NCBI GenBank assembly: GCA_003222135.1
Contig: QHUM01000047.1
Location: forward strand, 272 to 64,271
DNA from: Gemmatimonadota bacterium
Lineage (GTDB): Bacteria > Gemmatimonadota > Gemmatimonadetes > Gemmatimonadales > GWC2-71-9
Reading direction: 5' to 3'
Length of the DNA stretch: 64,000 nt
This document shows positions 42,399-59,052 of this stretch, in pieces. Position 1 is the first letter of the stretch; every line of letters begins with the position of its first letter. The notes under the pieces were generated by a model that worked only from the letters and a program-made list of their open reading frames with translations, did not search any database and was not told where the DNA came from. The translations under genes were made by a program, and so were the position numbers.

Positions 42399-42986
42399 AT
42401 GAACCGGCGAGAATTGCTCCGTGTGCTTGGCGCCAGCGCGCTCCTGCCGGCGCTGCCGGGCCGTTCCGCCGAGCGCCTCGGCGCGGCTGGCCGGCGCATC
42501 CACGCGCAAGCCCGGAGTCGCGGGCTCCAGGTGCTCGATCCGCATCAAAGCGAGACGGTCGCCACGATCGCCGAGCTGATCATCCCCACGACCGACACGC
42601 CCGGCGCCCGGGCGGCCCAGGTGCACCGCTTCATCGATCTGCTGCTCGCCGAATGGGCGCCGGACGACGACCGGAAGCAGTTTCTCGACGGACTGGCCGA
42701 CGTGGACGCGCGTGCGCGCACCGCCTACGGCACGGATTTCATCAGCGCAACCGCGGCGCAACGCGAGGCGATCCTGACTGCGCTCGACGCCGACCTCCGG
42801 ACGCGGCAGGAGGCGAAACAGGATACCTGGAAGCTGTTCTTCCAGCGGATGAAGTTCCTCACGGTGTACGGCTACTGCACCTCCGAAGTCGGCGCCACGG
42901 CCGAGCTGCACTACGAGGTGATCCCGGGCTCCTACGACGGGTGCACGGACTTGAGGCGGATGAGCGCCGGCCCCGGGGATTTCTGA
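42399..42986 (+). CDS. Gluconate 2-dehydrogenase subunit-3 family (Tat chaperone subunit of GMC #1)
   Basis: MNRRELL Tat motif, IIPTTDTPGA, GYCTSEVG. Confidence 0.88.
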   Translation: MNRRELLRVLGASALLPALPGRSAERLGAAGRRIHAQARSRGLQVLDPHQSETVATIAELIIPTTDTPGARAAQVHRFIDLLLAEWAPDDDRKQFLDGLADVDARARTAYGTDFISATAAQREAILTALDADLRTRQEAKQDTWKLFFQRMKFLTVYGYCTSEVGATAELHYEVIPGSYDGCTDLRRMSAGPGDF

Positions 42987-44671
42987 TGGCGGCGCCCAGC
43001 TTCGACGCCATCGTCGTCGGCTCCGGGATCTCGGGCGGGTGGGCCGCGAAGGAGCTGTGCGAGCGCGGGCTCAAGACGCTCGTGCTCGAGGCCGGCCGGC
43101 CGATCGATCCCGCCCGGGACTACGTCGAGCACGTGCCGCCGTGGGCGATGAAGTTCCGCGGCTTCGGCGACCGCAAGGCGCTCGAGCGCGATCAGTTCAT
43201 CCAGCGCCACTGCTACGCCTGCAACGAGTACAGCGGCAAGTTCTTCGTGAACGACCGGGAGAACCCGTACAGCTTCGATCCCGACAAGCCGTTCCACTGG
43301 ATCCGTGGGCGCCAGGTCGGCGGCCGGTCCCTCATGTGGGGGCGGCAGGTGTACCGCTGGAGCGATCTCGACTTCGAGGCGAATGCGCGCGACGGCTTCG
43401 GCGTGGATTGGCCGATCCGCTACGCCGACATCGCGCCGTGGTACGACCACGTCGAGGAGTTCATCGGGATCTCGGGCGAGGCGCTCGGTCTCCCCCAGCT
43501 CCCCGACGGCAAGTTCCTCCCGCCGATGGCGCTGAACTGCGCCGAGCAGGTCGTGCGCGAGGGCGTCGCGAAGCGCTTCGCCCCGGAGCGGGTCGTGACG
43601 ATCGGCCGCGTCGCCATCCTCACGGCGCCGCACGGCGGGCGCGCGGCGTGCCACTACTGCGGGCCGTGCGAGCGCGGCTGCATCACGCACTCGTACTTCA
43701 ACAGCATCGGCGTGACGCTCCCGGCGGCGCGCGCCACGGGCCGGCTCACGCTGCGCCCCTACAGCGTGGTCGAGAGCGTCTTGTACGACGAGCGGCGCGA
43801 CCGGGCCACCGGTGTGCGCGTCATCGACGCGCAGACCCACCAGGCGCTCGAGTTCCACGCGCGCGTCGTCTTCCTGTGCGCCTCGACGCTCGAGTCGACC
43901 CGCATCCTCCTCAACTCGAAGACCCGCCGCTTCCCCGCCGGGCTCGCGAACGCGAGCGGTGCGCTCGGCAAGAACCTCATGGACCACATCATGGGCGGCG
44001 GGGCGGCGGGGATGATCCCGGGCATGGAAGACCGCGGCGTCCACGGGCACCGGCCCAACGGGATCTATGTGCCCCGATTCCGCAACGTGAAGACGCCGCA
44101 CCCCGACCTGCTGCGCGGGTACGGGTTTCAGGGCGGCGCCGATCGCGCGGGGTGGGGCCGCATGGCGTCGCAGCCCGGGTTCGGCGTCGAGCTCAAACGC
44201 GGCCTGCACACAGCCGGGCCCTGGCACTTCTCGTTCTACGGCTTCGGGGAATGCCTGCCCCGCCCGACCAACTTCGTGGAGATCGACTCGGAGAAGGTCG
44301 ACGCCTGGGGGGTTCCGGCGCTGCGGATCCACTGCGCGTGGAGCGACAACGAGCGCAAGCTGCTGCACGACATGTCGGTCACCGGGGCGGAGATGCTGGA
44401 GGCCGCGGGGGCGCGCGACATCCACTCCTTCACGGACGACAATCCACCGGGTCTCACGATCCACGAAATGGGCACCGCGCGGATGGGGCGCGACCCGAAG
44501 ACGTCGGTCCTGAACGCCCACAACCAGTGCCACGACGTGAAAAACGTGTTCGTCACCGACGGCGCCTGCATGGCGTCGACGGCATGTCAAAATCCGTCCA
44601 TCACGTACATGGCGCTCACGGCGCGGGCGGCGGCATACGCAGTGGAAGCGATGAAACGGAACGAACTGTAA
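42986..44671 (+). CDS. GMC oxidoreductase #1 (glycoside 3-dehydrogenase LacA-like)
   Basis: GSGISGG, GGRSLMWGRQ, CHYCGPCERGC, IHEMGTARMG, QNPS. Confidence 0.93.
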   Translation: MAAPSFDAIVVGSGISGGWAAKELCERGLKTLVLEAGRPIDPARDYVEHVPPWAMKFRGFGDRKALERDQFIQRHCYACNEYSGKFFVNDRENPYSFDPDKPFHWIRGRQVGGRSLMWGRQVYRWSDLDFEANARDGFGVDWPIRYADIAPWYDHVEEFIGISGEALGLPQLPDGKFLPPMALNCAEQVVREGVAKRFAPERVVTIGRVAILTAPHGGRAACHYCGPCERGCITHSYFNSIGVTLPAARATGRLTLRPYSVVESVLYDERRDRATGVRVIDAQTHQALEFHARVVFLCASTLESTRILLNSKTRRFPAGLANASGALGKNLMDHIMGGGAAGMIPGMEDRGVHGHRPNGIYVPRFRNVKTPHPDLLRGYGFQGGADRAGWGRMASQPGFGVELKRGLHTAGPWHFSFYGFGECLPRPTNFVEIDSEKVDAWGVPALRIHCAWSDNERKLLHDMSVTGAEMLEAAGARDIHSFTDDNPPGLTIHEMGTARMGRDPKTSVLNAHNQCHDVKNVFVTDGACMASTACQNPSITYMALTARAAAYAVEAMKRNEL

Positions 44672-53800: not shown

Positions 53801-55636
53801 ATGACGACGCTGCACTGGATCGATTACGCCATCATGCTGCTGTACTTCGCGTTCGTGCTCGGCATCGGAGCGATGCTGCGGCGCTACGTGCACACGAGCG
53901 AGGACTTCTTCCTCTCGGGCCGCTCGATCCCCGCCTGGGTGACCGGTCTCGCGTTCATCTCGGCGAACCTGGGCGCACAGGAAGTGATCGGGATGGGTGC
54001 CTCGGGCGCCAAGTACGGGATCGCGACGAGTCACTTTTACTGGGTGGGCGCGATCCCGGCCATGGTGTTCGTGGGGCTCTTCATGATGCCGTTCTACTAC
54101 GGCTCGCGCGCCCGGTCCGTCCCCGAATATCTGAAGCTGCGGTTCGACGAGAAGACGCGGGCGGTGAACGCCGTCTCGTTCGCCGTCATGACGGTGTTCT
54201 CGTCCGGCATCTCGCTGTATGCGATGGGGAAGCTGCTCAATCTGCTGCTGGGATGGAGCTTCGACGCCAGCATCCTCGTCGCGGGGGGCATCGTGCTCGG
54301 CTACATCTTCCTCGGCGGCCTGACGAGCGCCATCTACAACGAGGTGCTGCAGTTCTTCCTCATCGTGTTCGGCTTCGCCCCGCTCGTGTTCCTCGGGCTG
54401 CGGGACGTGGGCGGGTGGGCGGGGCTCTCCGCGCGGCTTGCCGGCGTCGCCACCAGCAACGGCTACGCGGCGGGCGCCTACACGCGGAGCTGGGCGTTCA
54501 TGGGAAGCGCGTCCGCGAACCCCGTCGGCGTCGAGTGGTTCGGCCTCGTCATGGGCCTCGGGTTCGTGCTGTCGTTCGGGTACTGGTGCACGGACTTCCT
54601 CGTCGTGCAACGCGCCATGGCGGCGAACTCGATGACGGCGGCGCGGCGCACGCCGCTCATCGCCGCGCTCCCCAAGATGCTGTTTCCCTTCCTCGTGATT
54701 CTTCCCGGCATGCTCGCTCTGGTCGTGAGCTCCACCGCCGTGCGGTCGACGAGCGTCCCGGCGCCGGGTGCGCCCGCGGTGGCCAGTGCCGCCGCCGCGG
54801 CGACGGTCGCTCCGGCGAATCCGGTCCCGGAGCGCCGGGAGGGGATCGTGCCGCCCAAGCTCGACCCGCGCACCGGCGAGCCGCTGCGCGACGCCCGCGG
54901 CCGCGTGGTGCTCGACTACGATCTCGCCACGCCGATGATGCTGATGCACTTCTTCCCGGCGGGCCTGCTCGGGCTGGGGCTCACGGCGCTGCTGGCGTCG
55001 TTCATGTCGGGGATGGCCGGGAACGTGACGGCCTTCAATACCGTGTGGACCTACGACCTGTACCAGAGCTATATCCGGCGGGGGGCGCCGGACTCGCACT
55101 ACCTCGCGATGGGCCGGTTCGCGACGGTGTTCGGGGTGGCCATCTCTATCGTGGCGGCGTACGTGGCGGCGTCGTTCAACAACATCATGGACTTCCTGCA
55201 GCTCGTGTTCGCGTTCGTGAACGCGCCGCTGTTCGCCACGTTCGCGCTGGGGATGTTCTGGCCGCGGGCCACCGGCCACGGGGCCTTCACCGGCCTCGTC
55301 TCCGGCATCCTCGCCGCGGCCGTGCACCACGGGATGTCGCTCCCCGCCGGCGCGCACGTCGGCGTCAAGGGCGGGTATTTCGGCGTGGTGACGACGTACC
55401 CGAGCGAGCTGGCCCAAACGTTCTGGACCGCGATCGCGGCGTGGGTCACGTGCTTCGTCGTGACCATCGTCGTCAGCCTGCTGACGCGACCCCGGCCGGC
55501 GGAGCAACTGCACGGCCTGGTGTACGGGCTGACGCCCAAACCCACCGACGACGTGAAGCGGTGGTACGAGCGCCCCGGCCCACTGGCCGTGATCGTGTTG
55601 ACCCTGACGGTCGCTTTGAACCTGATCTTTTTTTAG
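53801..55636 (+). CDS. Sodium:solute symporter (sugar)
   Basis: DFFLSGR, SANLGA, YWCTDFLVVQR, many TMs. Confidence 0.93.
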   Translation: MTTLHWIDYAIMLLYFAFVLGIGAMLRRYVHTSEDFFLSGRSIPAWVTGLAFISANLGAQEVIGMGASGAKYGIATSHFYWVGAIPAMVFVGLFMMPFYYGSRARSVPEYLKLRFDEKTRAVNAVSFAVMTVFSSGISLYAMGKLLNLLLGWSFDASILVAGGIVLGYIFLGGLTSAIYNEVLQFFLIVFGFAPLVFLGLRDVGGWAGLSARLAGVATSNGYAAGAYTRSWAFMGSASANPVGVEWFGLVMGLGFVLSFGYWCTDFLVVQRAMAANSMTAARRTPLIAALPKMLFPFLVILPGMLALVVSSTAVRSTSVPAPGAPAVASAAAAATVAPANPVPERREGIVPPKLDPRTGEPLRDARGRVVLDYDLATPMMLMHFFPAGLLGLGLTALLASFMSGMAGNVTAFNTVWTYDLYQSYIRRGAPDSHYLAMGRFATVFGVAISIVAAYVAASFNNIMDFLQLVFAFVNAPLFATFALGMFWPRATGHGAFTGLVSGILAAAVHHGMSLPAGAHVGVKGGYFGVVTTYPSELAQTFWTAIAAWVTCFVVTIVVSLLTRPRPAEQLHGLVYGLTPKPTDDVKRWYERPGPLAVIVLTLTVALNLIFF

Positions 55637-55653
55637 GGCGGAAGGGGCGCGGC

Positions 55654-55860
55654 GTGGGAATCGACCTGCGGATGCCGCTGGGCGCGTTGTTCGGCGTGCT
55701 GGGCCTGCTGCTCACTCTGTACGGCGCCGCGACGCGCGGCCAGCCGGGCACTGAGCCGACGGGCGTACCGGTCAACCTGATCTGGGGCGTCGTCCTCCTC
55801 GCGTTCGGGCTGTGGATGCTGTTGCTTGCCCGCCGCGCGCGACAGGCGTCCAAGATGTAG
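55654..55860 (+). CDS. Small two-TM SSS partner protein
   Basis: DLRMPLGALF...NLIWG..L.FG pattern directly downstream of the SSS gene. Confidence 0.75.
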   Translation: MGIDLRMPLGALFGVLGLLLTLYGAATRGQPGTEPTGVPVNLIWGVVLLAFGLWMLLLARRARQASKM

Positions 55861-55897
55861 CTTGCTCGATGGGGATCACTTCGGAGGAGAATACCAC

Positions 55898-56476
55898 ATG
55901 AAGCTTCTCACACTCGCGCTGGCCGTGCCGCTCCTAGCCGCCGCCGCCCCAAGAGCGGGCGCGCAGGAGGCGCCCAAGGGCCCGGAGCCGCTCCAGGTCG
56001 GAGTGGCCGCACCCGACTTCGCGCTCCCGGGCGCGACGCGCTACGGCGTGCTCAGGAATCCGATCCACTTGAGCGATTTCAAGGGGAAGACGGTCGTCCT
56101 CGCCTTCTTCTATAAGGCGCGAACCAAAGGCTGAACGATCCAAATGCATGCGTACCGTGATCAGTACGCACAGTTGTTTCACGACGGCCGCAACGTGGTG
56201 CTCATCGCCATCAGCGTGGATCCCGCCGACACGCTCGCCGCGTGGGCTCGGGACGACGAGTTCCAGTATCTGTTCGCGAGCGATACCGGGGGCGTCATCG
56301 GCAAGACGTACGGCGCCACCAATCCGAAGTACGGGCTCGACAACCGCACCCTGTTCGTGGTCGGCCCCGACGGGAAGATCGCGTATCGGGCGACGCCGTT
56401 CCGGGAGATCGACCCGACGGCGTACAAGGAGCTGGGCGCGGCGATCGACCGGGTGGCGCCTAAGCCGGCGGAATAG
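55898..56476 (+). CDS. Exported peroxiredoxin (Bcp/PrxQ-like) with in-frame UGA (probable selenocysteine) at codon 79
   Basis: Two ORF-track pieces are in the same frame; FFYKARTKG-TGA-TIQM aligns with FYPxxxTxGCTxE; APDF, ISVD, RTLFVVGPDGKI; GGAGGA RBS; signal peptide. Confidence 0.85.
56149..56170 (+). promoter_or_regulatory. Putative bacterial SECIS hairpin
   Basis: TGCGTAC-cgtgatca-GTACGCA 7-bp stem starting 15 nt after the UGA, with G in the loop. Confidence 0.65.
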
Positions 56477-56971
56477 TCAGTCCCCGAGCAGCCGCCGCAG
56501 CACCGCGGCGATGTCCTGCTCGGCGCCGGCGCCGGTGTACACGACTTTGCCGGCGCGATCGAGCACGACGATGTAAGAGGTCGTGGGCGCCTGATACGCC
56601 CGCACCGCCGCTCCGTTCGCATCGTACAGCACGGGGAACGGCAGCGGGGCCGCTGCGAGGTGGCGCTTGATCGACGCCGGGGTCTCGTTCACGCCGACGC
56701 CGACGGCGAGGAACGTCACGTTAGCGCCGTACTTGGCATGCGCCGCCTTGAGCGACGGCTCGAGCGCCTTGCACAGCGGGCACCACGTAGCCCAGAACTC
56801 GAGCAGCACGGGCTGCTTCCCCACGTACTGCCCCAGGTCCACCACCTTGCCATCGAGATCGGCGAGCGTCACGGCGGGCCCCGTGGTTCCGAGGGGTAGC
56901 CCCACGTCCTGCCCGGCCAGCGCCACCGGGAGGGCGAGGAGACAGCCAGTCGCCAGAGCCAGCAATCGCAT
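56477..56971 (-). CDS. TlpA family thiol:disulfide oxidoreductase
   Basis: Signal peptide, FWATWCPLC, APT (cis-Pro), LDRAGKV. Confidence 0.92.
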   Translation of the reverse strand: MRLLALATGCLLALPVALAGQDVGLPLGTTGPAVTLADLDGKVVDLGQYVGKQPVLLEFWATWCPLCKALEPSLKAAHAKYGANVTFLAVGVGVNETPASIKRHLAAAPLPFPVLYDANGAAVRAYQAPTTSYIVVLDRAGKVVYTGAGAEQDIAAVLRRLLGD

Positions 56972-56973
56972 CG

Positions 56974-57696
56974 TCACAAGACCGTGCCCATTTGAATGAA
57001 GTAGTACTCCGCCATCGCGAGCAGCGCCACGCCCGCGACCTTCTTGATCCACAACGTCCAGGCGCCGGTCCGGGGGAGCGACGCTAAGGAGCCCGAGAAT
57101 ACCCCGACGACCACCAGCAGTGCTGTCATCCCGAGCGAGAAGACGAAGAGATAGATGAAGCCCAGCGTCGCACTCCGCGTCGTAGCCACCCACGTGAGCA
57201 CCGCCGCGAAGGCCGGGGCCCCGCACGGCGCCGCGACGATGCCGGACGTGGCGCCGAGCAGAAACACGCCCCCGTACGATCCCCCCGTGAGGCGTCCGGC
57301 CCACTGCAGCAGACGTTGCGGCGCGGACACGGGAAACACGTCCAGCATGGCAAGGCCGAAAACGAGCAGCAGGTTCCCGATCGCGAAGCGCGCCCACGGG
57401 CTCGCGCTCACGGTGCCGAACAGCGACCCGGTGAGGCCGGCGATGAGGCCGAGGATCGCGTAAAACAGCGCCAGCCCCGATACGTAGGCGAACGTCAGTC
57501 GGGCCGCTCGAGCGCGGGAGGTGCTCCCGGCCCCCGTGCCCGCGAGGATACCCGCCGTGATCGGGATCATGGGGTAGATGCACGGCGTGAGGCTCGTGAC
57601 GAGGCCCGCGCCGAACAGCGTGACGAGGGCGAGGAGCGGGCTCTTCGCCAGCGCCTCGCCCAGGTCCACCACGACGAACAACAGGCCGAGGGTCAA
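56974..57696 (-). CDS. CcdA/DsbD-beta membrane electron transporter
   Basis: SLTPCIYPMIP and AAPCGAP, about 6-7 TM. Confidence 0.92.
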   Translation of the reverse strand: MTLGLLFVVVDLGEALAKSPLLALVTLFGAGLVTSLTPCIYPMIPITAGILAGTGAGSTSRARAARLTFAYVSGLALFYAILGLIAGLTGSLFGTVSASPWARFAIGNLLLVFGLAMLDVFPVSAPQRLLQWAGRLTGGSYGGVFLLGATSGIVAAPCGAPAFAAVLTWVATTRSATLGFIYLFVFSLGMTALLVVVGVFSGSLASLPRTGAWTLWIKKVAGVALLAMAEYYFIQMGTVL

Positions 57697-57702
57697 CGTC
57701 CG

Positions 57703-59052
57703 CTACAAGCTCCACCCCGACCGATAACGTGGATGGATGAACTCGTCCGGGATACTCACGTTCGTCACCTGGCCGTTCTCCGGGTTGATCTCCAGCGCCC
57801 GGCCCAGCCGTACCGCGAGACACCCGAGCAGTACCATCGACGACAGCCCTCCCGCGTGGCCATCGAACGTCGAGCCCGCGGGCGGCCCGCCCTTGCACGC
57901 CGCGATCCACTCGGCGTAGACGCCGGGCGAGTGCGGGTACTTCGGCTGCTGCGCGGGTGGCGGTGGATCGCCGCTCGCGACGCCCTGCTTCGCGGACGTG
58001 AGCAGCTTGGCGTCGTCCCCGTACGTCCCCGCGGTCAGCTTGCCGTCGCTTCCGATCCAGAGCTGCCCACCGCCCTTGTCGAACGGCCACGCCAGCTCGT
58101 CGGCCACTTCGACCGGTCGCGGCGGATAGAGACTGCCGTCGCGCCAGACCACTTTCACCTCGGGGCGCTTGCCCTTCGCGGCGAACGTGTAGCTGATGCG
58201 CGAGCCGGCCGGCGCGGTCTCCTTGAAGAGCGGTGTCGACTCGGCCTCGATGCGCGTGGGGTAGCCGAGATCGAGGGTCCAGTAGGCGGCGTCCATGATG
58301 TGGCACGCCATGTCACCCAGCGCTCCCGTACCGAAGTCCCAGAAACCGCGCCACTTGAACGGCGCGTACGCCGGATGATACGGCCGCTCCGACGCGGGCC
58401 CGAGCCACAGGTTCCAGTCGAGCGTAGCGGGAGCGTAGTACTCCTCGAGCGGCCGGTCGAGCGCCTGCGGCCAGATCGGCCGATTGGTCCAGAAGTGCAC
58501 CTCGCGCACCGACCCGATGGCGCCTGCTTCGACCAACTCGCGGATCTGGCGCGTGCCGTCGCGCGCGTGCCCCTGGTTCCCCATCTGGGTCATGATCTTG
58601 GGATGACTGCGCGCGTAGTCGGCCAGCGCGCGCACTTCGCCCATGGTCCGGGCGAGCGGCTTTTGGATGTAGGTGTGCTTGCCCGCCTTCAGGGCGAGCA
58701 TTCCGGCGGCGGCGTGCGAGTGGTCGGGCGTCGACACCGTCACGGCGTCGATGTTCTTCGACTCCTTGTCGAACATCTCGCGGTAATCCTTGTATCGCTT
58801 CGCCTTGATATAGGTCTGGAACGCGTCTTCGGCGCTCTTCCAATCCACGTCGCACAGGGCGTAGATGTTCTCCCCCTCCATGCCGCGCACGTCGTTGCGG
58901 CCCATGCCCCCCACGCCGATGCAGGCGACGTTGAGCTTGTCGCTGGGCGCGCGGTAGCCACGACCCAGCACGTGCCGGGGCACGATGGTGAAGGCCACGC
59001 CGGCGCCCACGTCGCCGACGAATTTCCGTCTCGAGATGCGTTTGCGTGACAT
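57703..59052 (-). CDS. Tat-exported Gfo/Idh/MocA oxidoreductase
   Basis: SRRKF, IGVGGMG, STPDHSH, QKPL, WRGFWDFGTGALGDMACH. Confidence 0.93.
   Translation of the reverse strand: MSRKRISRRKFVGDVGAGVAFTIVPRHVLGRGYRAPSDKLNVACIGVGGMGRNDVRGMEGENIYALCDVDWKSAEDAFQTYIKAKRYKDYREMFDKESKNIDAVTVSTPDHSHAAAGMLALKAGKHTYIQKPLARTMGEVRALADYARSHPKIMTQMGNQGHARDGTRQIRELVEAGAIGSVREVHFWTNRPIWPQALDRPLEEYYAPATLDWNLWLGPASERPYHPAYAPFKWRGFWDFGTGALGDMACHIMDAAYWTLDLGYPTRIEAESTPLFKETAPAGSRISYTFAAKGKRPEVKVVWRDGSLYPPRPVEVADELAWPFDKGGGQLWIGSDGKLTAGTYGDDAKLLTSAKQGVASGDPPPPAQQPKYPHSPGVYAEWIAACKGGPPAGSTFDGHAGGLSSMVLLGCLAVRLGRALEINPENGQVTNVSIPDEFIHPRYRSGWSL

Follow-up and report, generated by a model that had tools for sequence, protein, structure and literature searches.

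Peroxiredoxins that carry selenocysteine (Sec) in a TxxU motif have been known since 2001/2005 and are treated in reviews of 2022 and 2026. According to the available parts of this literature, PrxU of Eubacterium acidaminophilum serves as their prototype (Sohling et al. 2001, cited through reviews), 43 genes of the family (PF00578 / COG1225 Bcp, TxxU) were counted in the Sargasso Sea, and a census of 2016 lists 91 proteins in 78 organisms. As far as the accessible text of PMC3322552 goes, a cell-envelope pathway of peroxide reduction, PprX-TlpA-ScsB, has been demonstrated biochemically in Caulobacter crescentus; reducing relays of the CcdA-ResA, CcdA-CcmG and TlpA kind are assigned, there and in NCBIfam descriptions, to the maturation of cytochrome c and of cytochrome oxidase. 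Here we analyse a gene, prx, located in a 64,000-nucleotide stretch of Gemmatimonadota DNA (the window: contig QHUM01000047.1 of assembly GCA_003222135.1, positions 272 to 64,271), whose reading frame contains a TGA and which adjoins genes for a TlpA-like protein and for CcdA. We propose that prx encodes a secreted (periplasmic) one-Sec peroxiredoxin of soil Gemmatimonadales, fed by TlpA-CcdA, and put the probability of this proposal at about 0.6.

Both the Sec-peroxiredoxin class and the feeding of a periplasmic peroxiredoxin by TlpA and a DsbD-family transporter are established. What is new here is a tested linkage of a Sec-peroxiredoxin to TlpA-CcdA, and not a new mechanism. In the literature consulted we found no exported or periplasmic Sec-peroxiredoxin, none from Gemmatimonadota and none linked to TlpA-CcdA; supplementary tables (Table S1 of PMC3322552, the selenoproteome censuses) may list such proteins. 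Comparison with relatives supports the Sec codon, the selenocysteine insertion sequence (SECIS), the membership of the family and the conservation of the neighbourhood.

The prx gene and its in-frame TGA

The prx gene extends on the forward strand from 55898 to 56476 (ATG at 55898, TAG at 56474-56476), 8 nt downstream of a Shine-Dalgarno-like GGAGGAG (55883..55889, same strand), read directly. Translation table 11 cuts the frame in two, an open reading frame (ORF) ending at 56134 and another starting at 56144; with the TGA at 56132-56134 taken as U, which is the only in-frame TGA and falls at codon 79, the gene has 192 codons plus TAG. An earlier interpretation of this DNA, made from the letters without database searches (the sequence-only reading), had claimed that the TGA splits a single frame at the peroxidatic Cys position, and that the product has 192 residues and no Cys. 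Both claims hold. The two halves lie in the same frame; in the motif FFYKARTKG-U-TIQ, phmmer alignments with solved peroxiredoxins match residue 79 to the peroxidatic Cys and R150 to the catalytic Arg, some orthologues have Cys in the same column, and the Cys count of the full translation is zero. The assignment of the gene draws on the Pfam AhpC-TSA profile (98.2 bits against a cut-off of 26, E 4.4e-28, with Redoxin matching too), on orthologues, on a structural model and on fold matches; that of U79 on orthologue columns, structure alignments and reads.

The host genome of the window (3.38 Mb in 79 contigs, 92% complete) contains the whole machinery that the sequence-only reading had suggested looking for. 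A tRNA-Sec with anticodon tca scores 79.8 bits (cut-off 47), is called tRNA-SeC by ARAGORN and lies on a contig other than that of the window, inside which ARAGORN found no tRNA; selA (551.3 bits), selB (310.7 bits) and selD (405.1 bits) all exceed their curated cut-offs. The selD gene has an in-frame TGA of its own, followed by a strong hairpin: at this locus (contig C37, ~42415-43338, minus strand) the TGA occupies the known catalytic Cys/Sec position and the hairpin reaches -27 kcal/mol over 60 nt. With selD itself Sec-containing, the Sec machinery depends on Sec.

Relatives were surveyed in 61 genomes of the order, from three families; 120 loci, 115 of them distinct, were retrieved. An orthologue with exactly one TGA, aligning on both sides of it with 48-99% identity, is present in 48 of the 61 genomes, and a stop-free one in three (G011, G049 and G057). 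In a single alignment column the distinct loci have TGA in 108 cases, one of which (L033, from genome G019) belongs to an unpublished genome, and TGC or TGT, that is Cys, in the remaining 7; the alternation of Cys and TGA, which had been put forward as a check, is thus found. Conservation does not collapse 3' of the TGA: on both sides the substitutions follow the pattern of one and the same frame, second positions being nearly fixed and third positions varying freely, and R150 is invariant. The distribution of selA largely follows that of the TGA form. It is present in 44 of the 48 genomes with this form, the four exceptions being metagenome-assembled genomes (MAGs) 85-92% complete, and was not found in G049, G057 and G059, which carry Cys forms and are 98-100% complete.

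Database relatives comprise 97 full-length proteins with Cys at the site, and Sec forms are found only as 16 C-terminal fragments of 110-112 aa, some of them named 'redoxin domain-containing protein' by NCBI. The fragments that standard annotation had been predicted to yield are, therefore, what the public records hold. Five further full-length relatives (P0002, P0006, P0008, P0069 and P0108) have L, W or R where Sec would stand, and are probably TGA translated under another code, or variants. Two loci stand apart. L081, on a public Gemmatimonadales MAG contig, has an extra in-frame stop seven codons upstream, at the equivalent of Tyr72, and may be a pseudogene or an assembly error. L129 lies on a 2.4-kb contig binned to Candidatus Rokuibacteriota; its gene is 92% identical, with tlpA and ccdA nearby, and it is most likely a mis-binned Gemmatimonadales sequence.

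The letters of the TGA were also looked for in independent runs. Contigs of one soil DNA run and of three RNA-library runs (two studies) bridge 56132-56134, and no other letter was reported. To the lack of RNA-contig cover upstream of ~56070 we attach no meaning. In a soil DNA run the summed contig depth peaks five- to tenfold over 56117-56163 (241.7 vs ~26 nearby), as would be expected if many soil relatives share the frozen 20-nt core described below. Taken together with the comparative results, the TGA is almost certainly a real Sec codon.

The hairpin downstream of the TGA

A hairpin follows the TGA at 56149..56170 on the forward strand, its stem formed by 56149-56155 and 56164-56170 and its loop by 56156-56163. 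The sequence-only reading had described a 7-bp hairpin 15 nt after the TGA: the 7 bp of the stem, which encloses a loop of 8 nt, were found as described, but the distance was not, since the hairpin begins 14 nt after the last base of the TGA.

The hairpin was compared across 107 Sec forms, L129 being excluded because its contig begins inside the gene. The core GCGTACCGTGATCAGTACGC, at 56150-56169, corresponding to +19..+38 with the T of the TGA as the origin of the numbering, does not vary among the 107 except for a single T>C at +30. The frozen core spans six third-codon positions, whereas third positions outside it (+18, +39, +45, +51 etc.) vary freely, and its frozen codons include the rare CGT (4 of 84 Arg codons) and GAT (15 of 65 Asp codons), as counted in five local genes with a GC content at third positions of 0.91. 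The closing pair, +18/+39, joins two third-codon positions and changes in a concerted way, being C-G in 63 forms, U-A in 31, G-C in 10, A-U in 2 and mispaired in 1. Paired forms number 106 of 107, against 66 on average and never more than 78 in 10,000 shuffles; when the 3' arm is slid by 1-3 nt, at most 415 of 749 cells are paired, against 748 of 749 in register. In all 6 Cys forms that were folded the hairpin is missing, and other synonymous codons are used there. On these comparative grounds, the frozen core with its covarying pair has the signature of a SECIS.

Fold and active site

An AlphaFold model built on 39 orthologues has a mean predicted local distance difference test score (pLDDT) of 89.6; confidence is low over residues 1-30, and folded structure sets in near residue 32. 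Foldseek places at the top Sulfolobus Bcp4 and the 1-Cys AhpE of Mycobacterium tuberculosis (TMt 0.83-0.86, 28-31% identity), and the solved structures closest by sequence belong to the same group (E 5.5e-15 to 1e-9). The Thr/Ser76, Sec/Cys79 and Arg150 of the peroxiredoxin site are kept in all 39 aligned sequences, residue 76 being Ser in a few and R150 invariant; residue 79 and R150 align with the peroxidatic Cys and the Arg of 2ywn. With the NCBIfam PrxU model, NF040737, the product scores 58.5 bits where 270 are required, and it falls short of the cut-off of every other NCBIfam model as well. Cys is absent from 105 of 107 Sec forms over the stretch that begins 45 residues ahead of the motif and runs to the C-terminus, and a single Cys is present in each of the 97 Cys forms from the databases: judging from the alignments, the family is one of one-chalcogen enzymes.

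The Pro of the PxxxTxxC motif is, in the available text of PMC3322552, absolutely conserved in peroxiredoxins, and PxxxTxxU is called highly conserved in the consulted part of a review on Sec-peroxiredoxins. In prx its place is taken by Tyr72 (codon 56111-56113). Among the 107 Sec forms the column contains Y in 52, F in 45, I in 3, V in 2, S in 1, P in 3 and a stop in 1, so that 97 are aromatic; Pro is present at all 7 Cys loci and in 96 of the 97 Cys forms from the databases. A FastTree phylogeny of 206 rows, from which L033, L081, L129 and rows too short or with a stop were left out, contains 102 Cys/Pro, 100 Sec/non-Pro, 3 Sec/Pro and 1 Cys/non-Pro sequences, and requires at least 10 changes between Sec and Cys and 9 between Pro and non-Pro. 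An independent-pairs test of Sec against loss of Pro is underpowered, no more than 3 pairs lying on branches with good support (median p 0.25). With so few independent pairs, the association of Sec with the loss of Pro, although striking, is statistically unproven.

Probable export

The N-terminus of the product has a short charged start, a hydrophobic run and an A-G-A before Q23, and neither a lipobox nor a twin-arginine motif was recognized by eye. A probable signal peptide of the general secretory type may thus span residues 1-22 (55898..55963, forward strand), the cleavage site being placed from the hydrophobic core and the A-G-A. About 30 residues of this hydrophobic extension have no counterpart in solved cytoplasmic relatives, which align from residue 25-32 on. 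Signal-like hydrophobic N-termini ending in AxA-Q recur among the orthologues. Three AhpC/TSA genes were detected in the host genome, and a signal-like N-terminus is seen in prx but in neither of the other two. A signal peptide had already been claimed for this product; its signal-like character stands, as a by-eye reading of sequence. Export of the product is very likely.

The tlpA-ccdA neighbourhood

On the reverse strand, tlpA (56477..56971) encodes a TlpA-like, putatively exported thioredoxin-fold protein of 164 aa with the motif WCPLC, convergent with prx, with 0 nt between the two stops. It is preceded, in the direction of transcription, by ccdA (56974..57696, reverse strand), the stop of which lies 2 nt before the tlpA start; its 240-aa product consists of DsbD_TM only (159.3 bits), with Cys in TPC and APC. 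The coordinates bear out what had been claimed of this arrangement, namely that the prx stop at 56476 abuts that of tlpA (WCPLC) and that tlpA is coupled to CcdA (TPC/APC).

The neighbourhood could be evaluated at 101 of the 108 Sec loci; at the other 7 the flank is too short, at least 1300 nt being needed to score neither gene as present. Just downstream of prx, a convergent tlpA, usually followed by ccdA, was found in 70 of these 101, and two more loci, L131 and L132, have ccdA-tlpA-prx on one strand, bringing to 72 the loci with tlpA(-ccdA) adjacent. Each of the three families of the order has examples of the convergent arrangement, TlpA identity falling to as little as ~48%, and W-C-x-x-C is kept in each of the 68 neighbouring TlpA sequences read. 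No further conserved member was found, either beyond ccdA or upstream of prx. The outer flanks are clade-specific, featuring a GFO oxidoreductase, a nucleoside symporter, SSF or GH20 in one clade and a methyladenine glycosylase, DUF72 and an exonuclease-helicase in another.

A reverse survey, in which the window TlpA was searched against the same 61 genomes and coordinates were collated by hand, gave 56 clear orthologues, 4 of which lie at a contig end, leaving 52 evaluable. In 41 of the 52 the tlpA gene adjoins a gene of the AhpC/TSA family, in most cases one with a signal-like N-terminus, 28 times convergent with the Sec form and 13 times co-directional with a TGA-less paralogue. In these 13 cases tlpA lies immediately upstream of the paralogue, often as ccdA-tlpA-prx; where tblastn gives an alignment, paralogue and Sec form share 30-40% identity. 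This tie of TlpA to AhpC/TSA-family genes, involving two peroxiredoxin lineages and two orientations, is the best available evidence that TlpA may serve as a peroxiredoxin reductase in the order.

The TGA-less AhpC/TSA lineage is exemplified by L163-L166, L158, L156 and L050 (in G010, G021, G012, G017, G027, G007 and G059). Of six such paralogues read, most have signal-like N-termini and three keep PxxxTxxC; in L163, L158 and L156 the peroxidatic Cys is gone, and these proteins may be without activity or have taken on another role.

Two other features of the window border on these genes. Upstream of prx, between it and a sodium:solute symporter gene (53801-55636), a short hydrophobic frame at ~55640-55860 on the forward strand may correspond to a small membrane protein. 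Upstream of ccdA, a GFO/IDH/MocA oxidoreductase gene (57703-59052, reverse strand), whose N-terminus resembles a twin-arginine export signal (SRRKFV), is kept beside ccdA only in closer relatives.

Discussion

The reading of the TGA has to be weighed against two others. If it were a true stop or a nonsense mutation, prx would be a pseudogene or two small genes, as the two ORFs produced by table 11, the 110-aa C-terminal piece listed as a protein in databases and the extra in-frame stop of L081 might suggest; yet the same TGA recurs in 108 of 115 loci, the substitution pattern is of the coding type in the same frame on either side, the catalytic Arg 3' of it is invariant, the SECIS covaries and the genome has the Sec machinery, and we consider the chances of this reading negligible. 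UGA might, in principle, also be read as Trp, Cys or Gly, through a changed code or near-cognate suppression, and the five database entries with L, W or R at the site, presumably gene calls under other codes, point that way. Such decoding is very improbable, given that tlpA and ccdA of the window themselves terminate in TGA, that the TGA/Cys alternation is confined to the Sec column, that the hairpin occurs only in TGA forms and that the presence of selA follows the TGA form. Some observations do not favour selenocysteine. The folding energy of the hairpin is no better than that of shuffles (z 0.14, z -0.76), so that its significance derives from the comparison only; it has no Rfam family, a scan of 55800-56600 giving only chance-level matches (E >1); and the RNA-library contigs (X18-X20, over ~56070-56800), being 90-97% alike, come most likely from relatives and are no proof of transcription.

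Less clear-cut is the function of the product and the source of its electrons. The sequence-only reading had proposed a 1-Sec periplasmic peroxiredoxin recycled by CcdA through TlpA; of this, the Sec and the Cys-free enzyme found strong support, and the putative recycling is backed by the conserved neighbourhood, in two independent configurations. A selenoprotein that is real and exported, but for which TlpA-CcdA is not the reductant, would leave the adjacency as inherited gene order: ccdA-tlpA would then serve cytochrome c maturation via Ccm, the assembly of copper centres or the TGA-less peroxiredoxin, and the Sec enzyme would be reduced by another periplasmic thioredoxin or a small thiol. 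A number of facts lean this way, and weigh against our proposal. The genes are convergent and do not form one operon. At 29 of the 101 evaluable Sec loci tlpA(-ccdA) is missing and the neighbours are unrelated housekeeping genes, among which no alternative redox partner was found (PALP enzyme, GHMP kinase, GH15, ABC-F, glycerate-kinase-like and sensor kinase genes). In 11 of the 52 evaluable genomes tlpA has no AhpC/TSA-family neighbour, and in 10 genomes with both genes tlpA stands beside, and co-directional with, the TGA-less paralogue, the Sec gene being alone. CcdA is the only strong DsbD-family gene of the host genome, at 159 bits against 65 for the second DsbD_TM gene; CcmE is encoded on another contig, and there are at least 4 other DsbE-like thioredoxins, 4 of which score above the window TlpA as DsbE-like. 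Related genomes, moreover, are not independent, and the neighbourhood counts thus overstate the number of independent events. Inherited order is nevertheless rather unlikely, since the trio is kept across three families, down to a TlpA identity of ~48% and with changing outer flanks, since L131 and L132 have ccdA-tlpA-prx on one strand, and since 41 of 52 evaluable genomes have tlpA next to a gene of the AhpC/TSA family, in one of two orientations. A further possibility is that the product is an exported Sec oxidoreductase other than a peroxidase, for instance a thiol/selenol-disulfide reductase or a metal/selenium handler working with TlpA, which diverged after the loss of Pro. The presence of Tyr, Phe, Ile, Val or Ser instead of Pro in 103 of the 107 Sec forms, almost all Cys forms keeping Pro, a weak match to SCO1/SenC (26.9 bits) and the lack of the catalytic Cys in several tlpA-linked paralogues fit this possibility. 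We regard it as improbable: the Thr/Ser, Sec/Cys and Arg of the peroxiredoxin site are present in all 39 aligned sequences, true peroxiredoxins are the best matches by sequence and by fold, and three Sec forms with Pro and one Cys form with Tyr indicate that the states interconvert within one family.

We therefore keep to an exported Sec-peroxiredoxin with TlpA-CcdA as its reductant, with some qualifications. Its signal peptide was judged by eye; and Pro being absent from 104 of 107 Sec forms, its peroxidase chemistry may differ from that of other peroxiredoxins. From its active site and closest relatives, the product is probably a peroxidase all the same. As to the reductant, CcdA, as the sole strong DsbD-family gene in a genome with CcmE and at least 4 DsbE-like proteins, very probably feeds several clients. 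ResB, of System II cytochrome c maturation, was not found in the 92% complete host genome. The second DsbD_TM gene (C32), considered as a possible redox context, lies among arginine-metabolism genes and offers none. A CcdA-TlpA pathway dedicated to the Sec-peroxiredoxin is unlikely and the relay is probably shared; that TlpA-CcdA is, as such a shared route, the physiological reductant appears the better-favoured reading of the gene neighbourhoods.

For export, peroxidase activity and every step of electron transfer we infer the following course, patterned on the Caulobacter PprX-TlpA-ScsB pathway and on 1-Cys peroxiredoxin chemistry, the latter being established knowledge. UGA-79 would be decoded as Sec by SelB and tRNA-Sec, steered by the 7-bp hairpin 14 nt downstream. 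The pre-protein would pass the general secretory (Sec) translocon, and a signal peptide of ~22 residues would be cut off near A22/Q23. In the periplasm the selenolate of U79, assisted by T76 and R150, would reduce H2O2 or organic hydroperoxides and become a selenenic acid. As the product has no resolving Cys, the oxidised enzyme would most likely be attacked by the first Cys of the TlpA WCPLC, forming a selenenylsulfide that the second Cys would resolve. CcdA, probably a shared hub, would then re-reduce TlpA with electrons carried across the membrane from cytoplasmic thioredoxin. The complete picture, a periplasmic selenium-dependent peroxide defence in which an exported Cys-free selenoperoxidase, its site rebuilt by the exchange of Pro for an aromatic residue, is recycled by selenenylsulfide exchange with TlpA fed by CcdA, is put forward tentatively, its chances falling a little short of even.

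A gene that occurs throughout the order is recorded as a truncated 110-aa piece and missed by NCBIfam, and the selenoprotein and peroxidase inventories of Gemmatimonadota are therefore wrong; for an abundant, order-wide antioxidant gene of soil bacteria, a correction of the annotation is warranted. The 20-nt SECIS core, frozen across the order and flanked by one covarying pair, offers a clean model for SelB recognition in the phylum, and the association of Sec with the loss of Pro is a testable hint on how a peroxiredoxin site is tuned for selenium. If the relay is true, the principle known from PprX-TlpA-ScsB would also apply to an enzyme based on selenium and to CcdA as a minimal transporter, and soil bacteria that are largely aerobic would have a selenoenzyme in their oxidising cell envelope. 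The full mechanism, if true, would represent the first relay for a selenoenzyme in the cell envelope, and could serve as a natural experiment on the needs of Sec as compared with Cys.

Comparison with known systems

The prx product shares with the PrxU family the replacement of the peroxidatic Cys by Sec in T-x-x-U, the AhpC/TSA fold, a UGA with a downstream hairpin and widespread Cys homologues. It differs from that family in its signal-like N-terminus, in the absence of Cys and in scoring 58.5 bits against the 270 required by the PrxU model; in addition, an aromatic residue, Tyr or Phe, replaces the Pro of PxxxTxxU in 97 of the 107 Sec forms, and a tlpA-ccdA neighbourhood is conserved.

Among solved structures, AhpE of M. 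tuberculosis (1xxu, 1xvw, 4x0x) resembles the window protein in having, according to the PDB title, a single catalytic chalcogen residue, and both AhpE and the archaeal Bcp4/Prx-like proteins (3hjp, 2ywn, 4g2e) resemble it in fold (TMt 0.82-0.86). In contrast to it, they have no signal peptide, use Cys instead of Sec, keep the Pro and are 28-31% identical.

CcdA-ResA, CcdA-CcmG and TlpA relays are similar in coupling a CcdA (DsbD_TM) gene to an exported CxxC protein of thioredoxin fold. The window TlpA, however, remains below the cut-offs of the corresponding models (ResA 63.6 vs 170, DsbE 31.8 vs 123, TlpA 32.4 vs 230), and what is conserved beside it is a peroxiredoxin gene in place of ccm or res genes.

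The PprX-TlpA-ScsB pathway, set beside the present locus on the strength of its description in the available text, combines an exported peroxiredoxin of the BCP/PrxQ type, a TlpA-like periplasmic thioredoxin that donates to it directly and a transporter of the DsbD superfamily, all of which have counterparts here, export of the peroxiredoxin being predicted. In both, a CxxC thioredoxin-like donor is linked to the peroxiredoxin; here the link is genomic, the adjacent gene encoding a Redoxin protein with WCPLC and a hydrophobic N-terminus. According to the same text, PprX differs from the window protein in relying on Cys and in having both the canonical Pro and a resolving Cys, and ScsB has an extra N-terminal domain, while the window transporter is a minimal 240-aa CcdA. 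The Caulobacter pathway was shown biochemically; the relay suggested for Gemmatimonadales is deduced from gene order.

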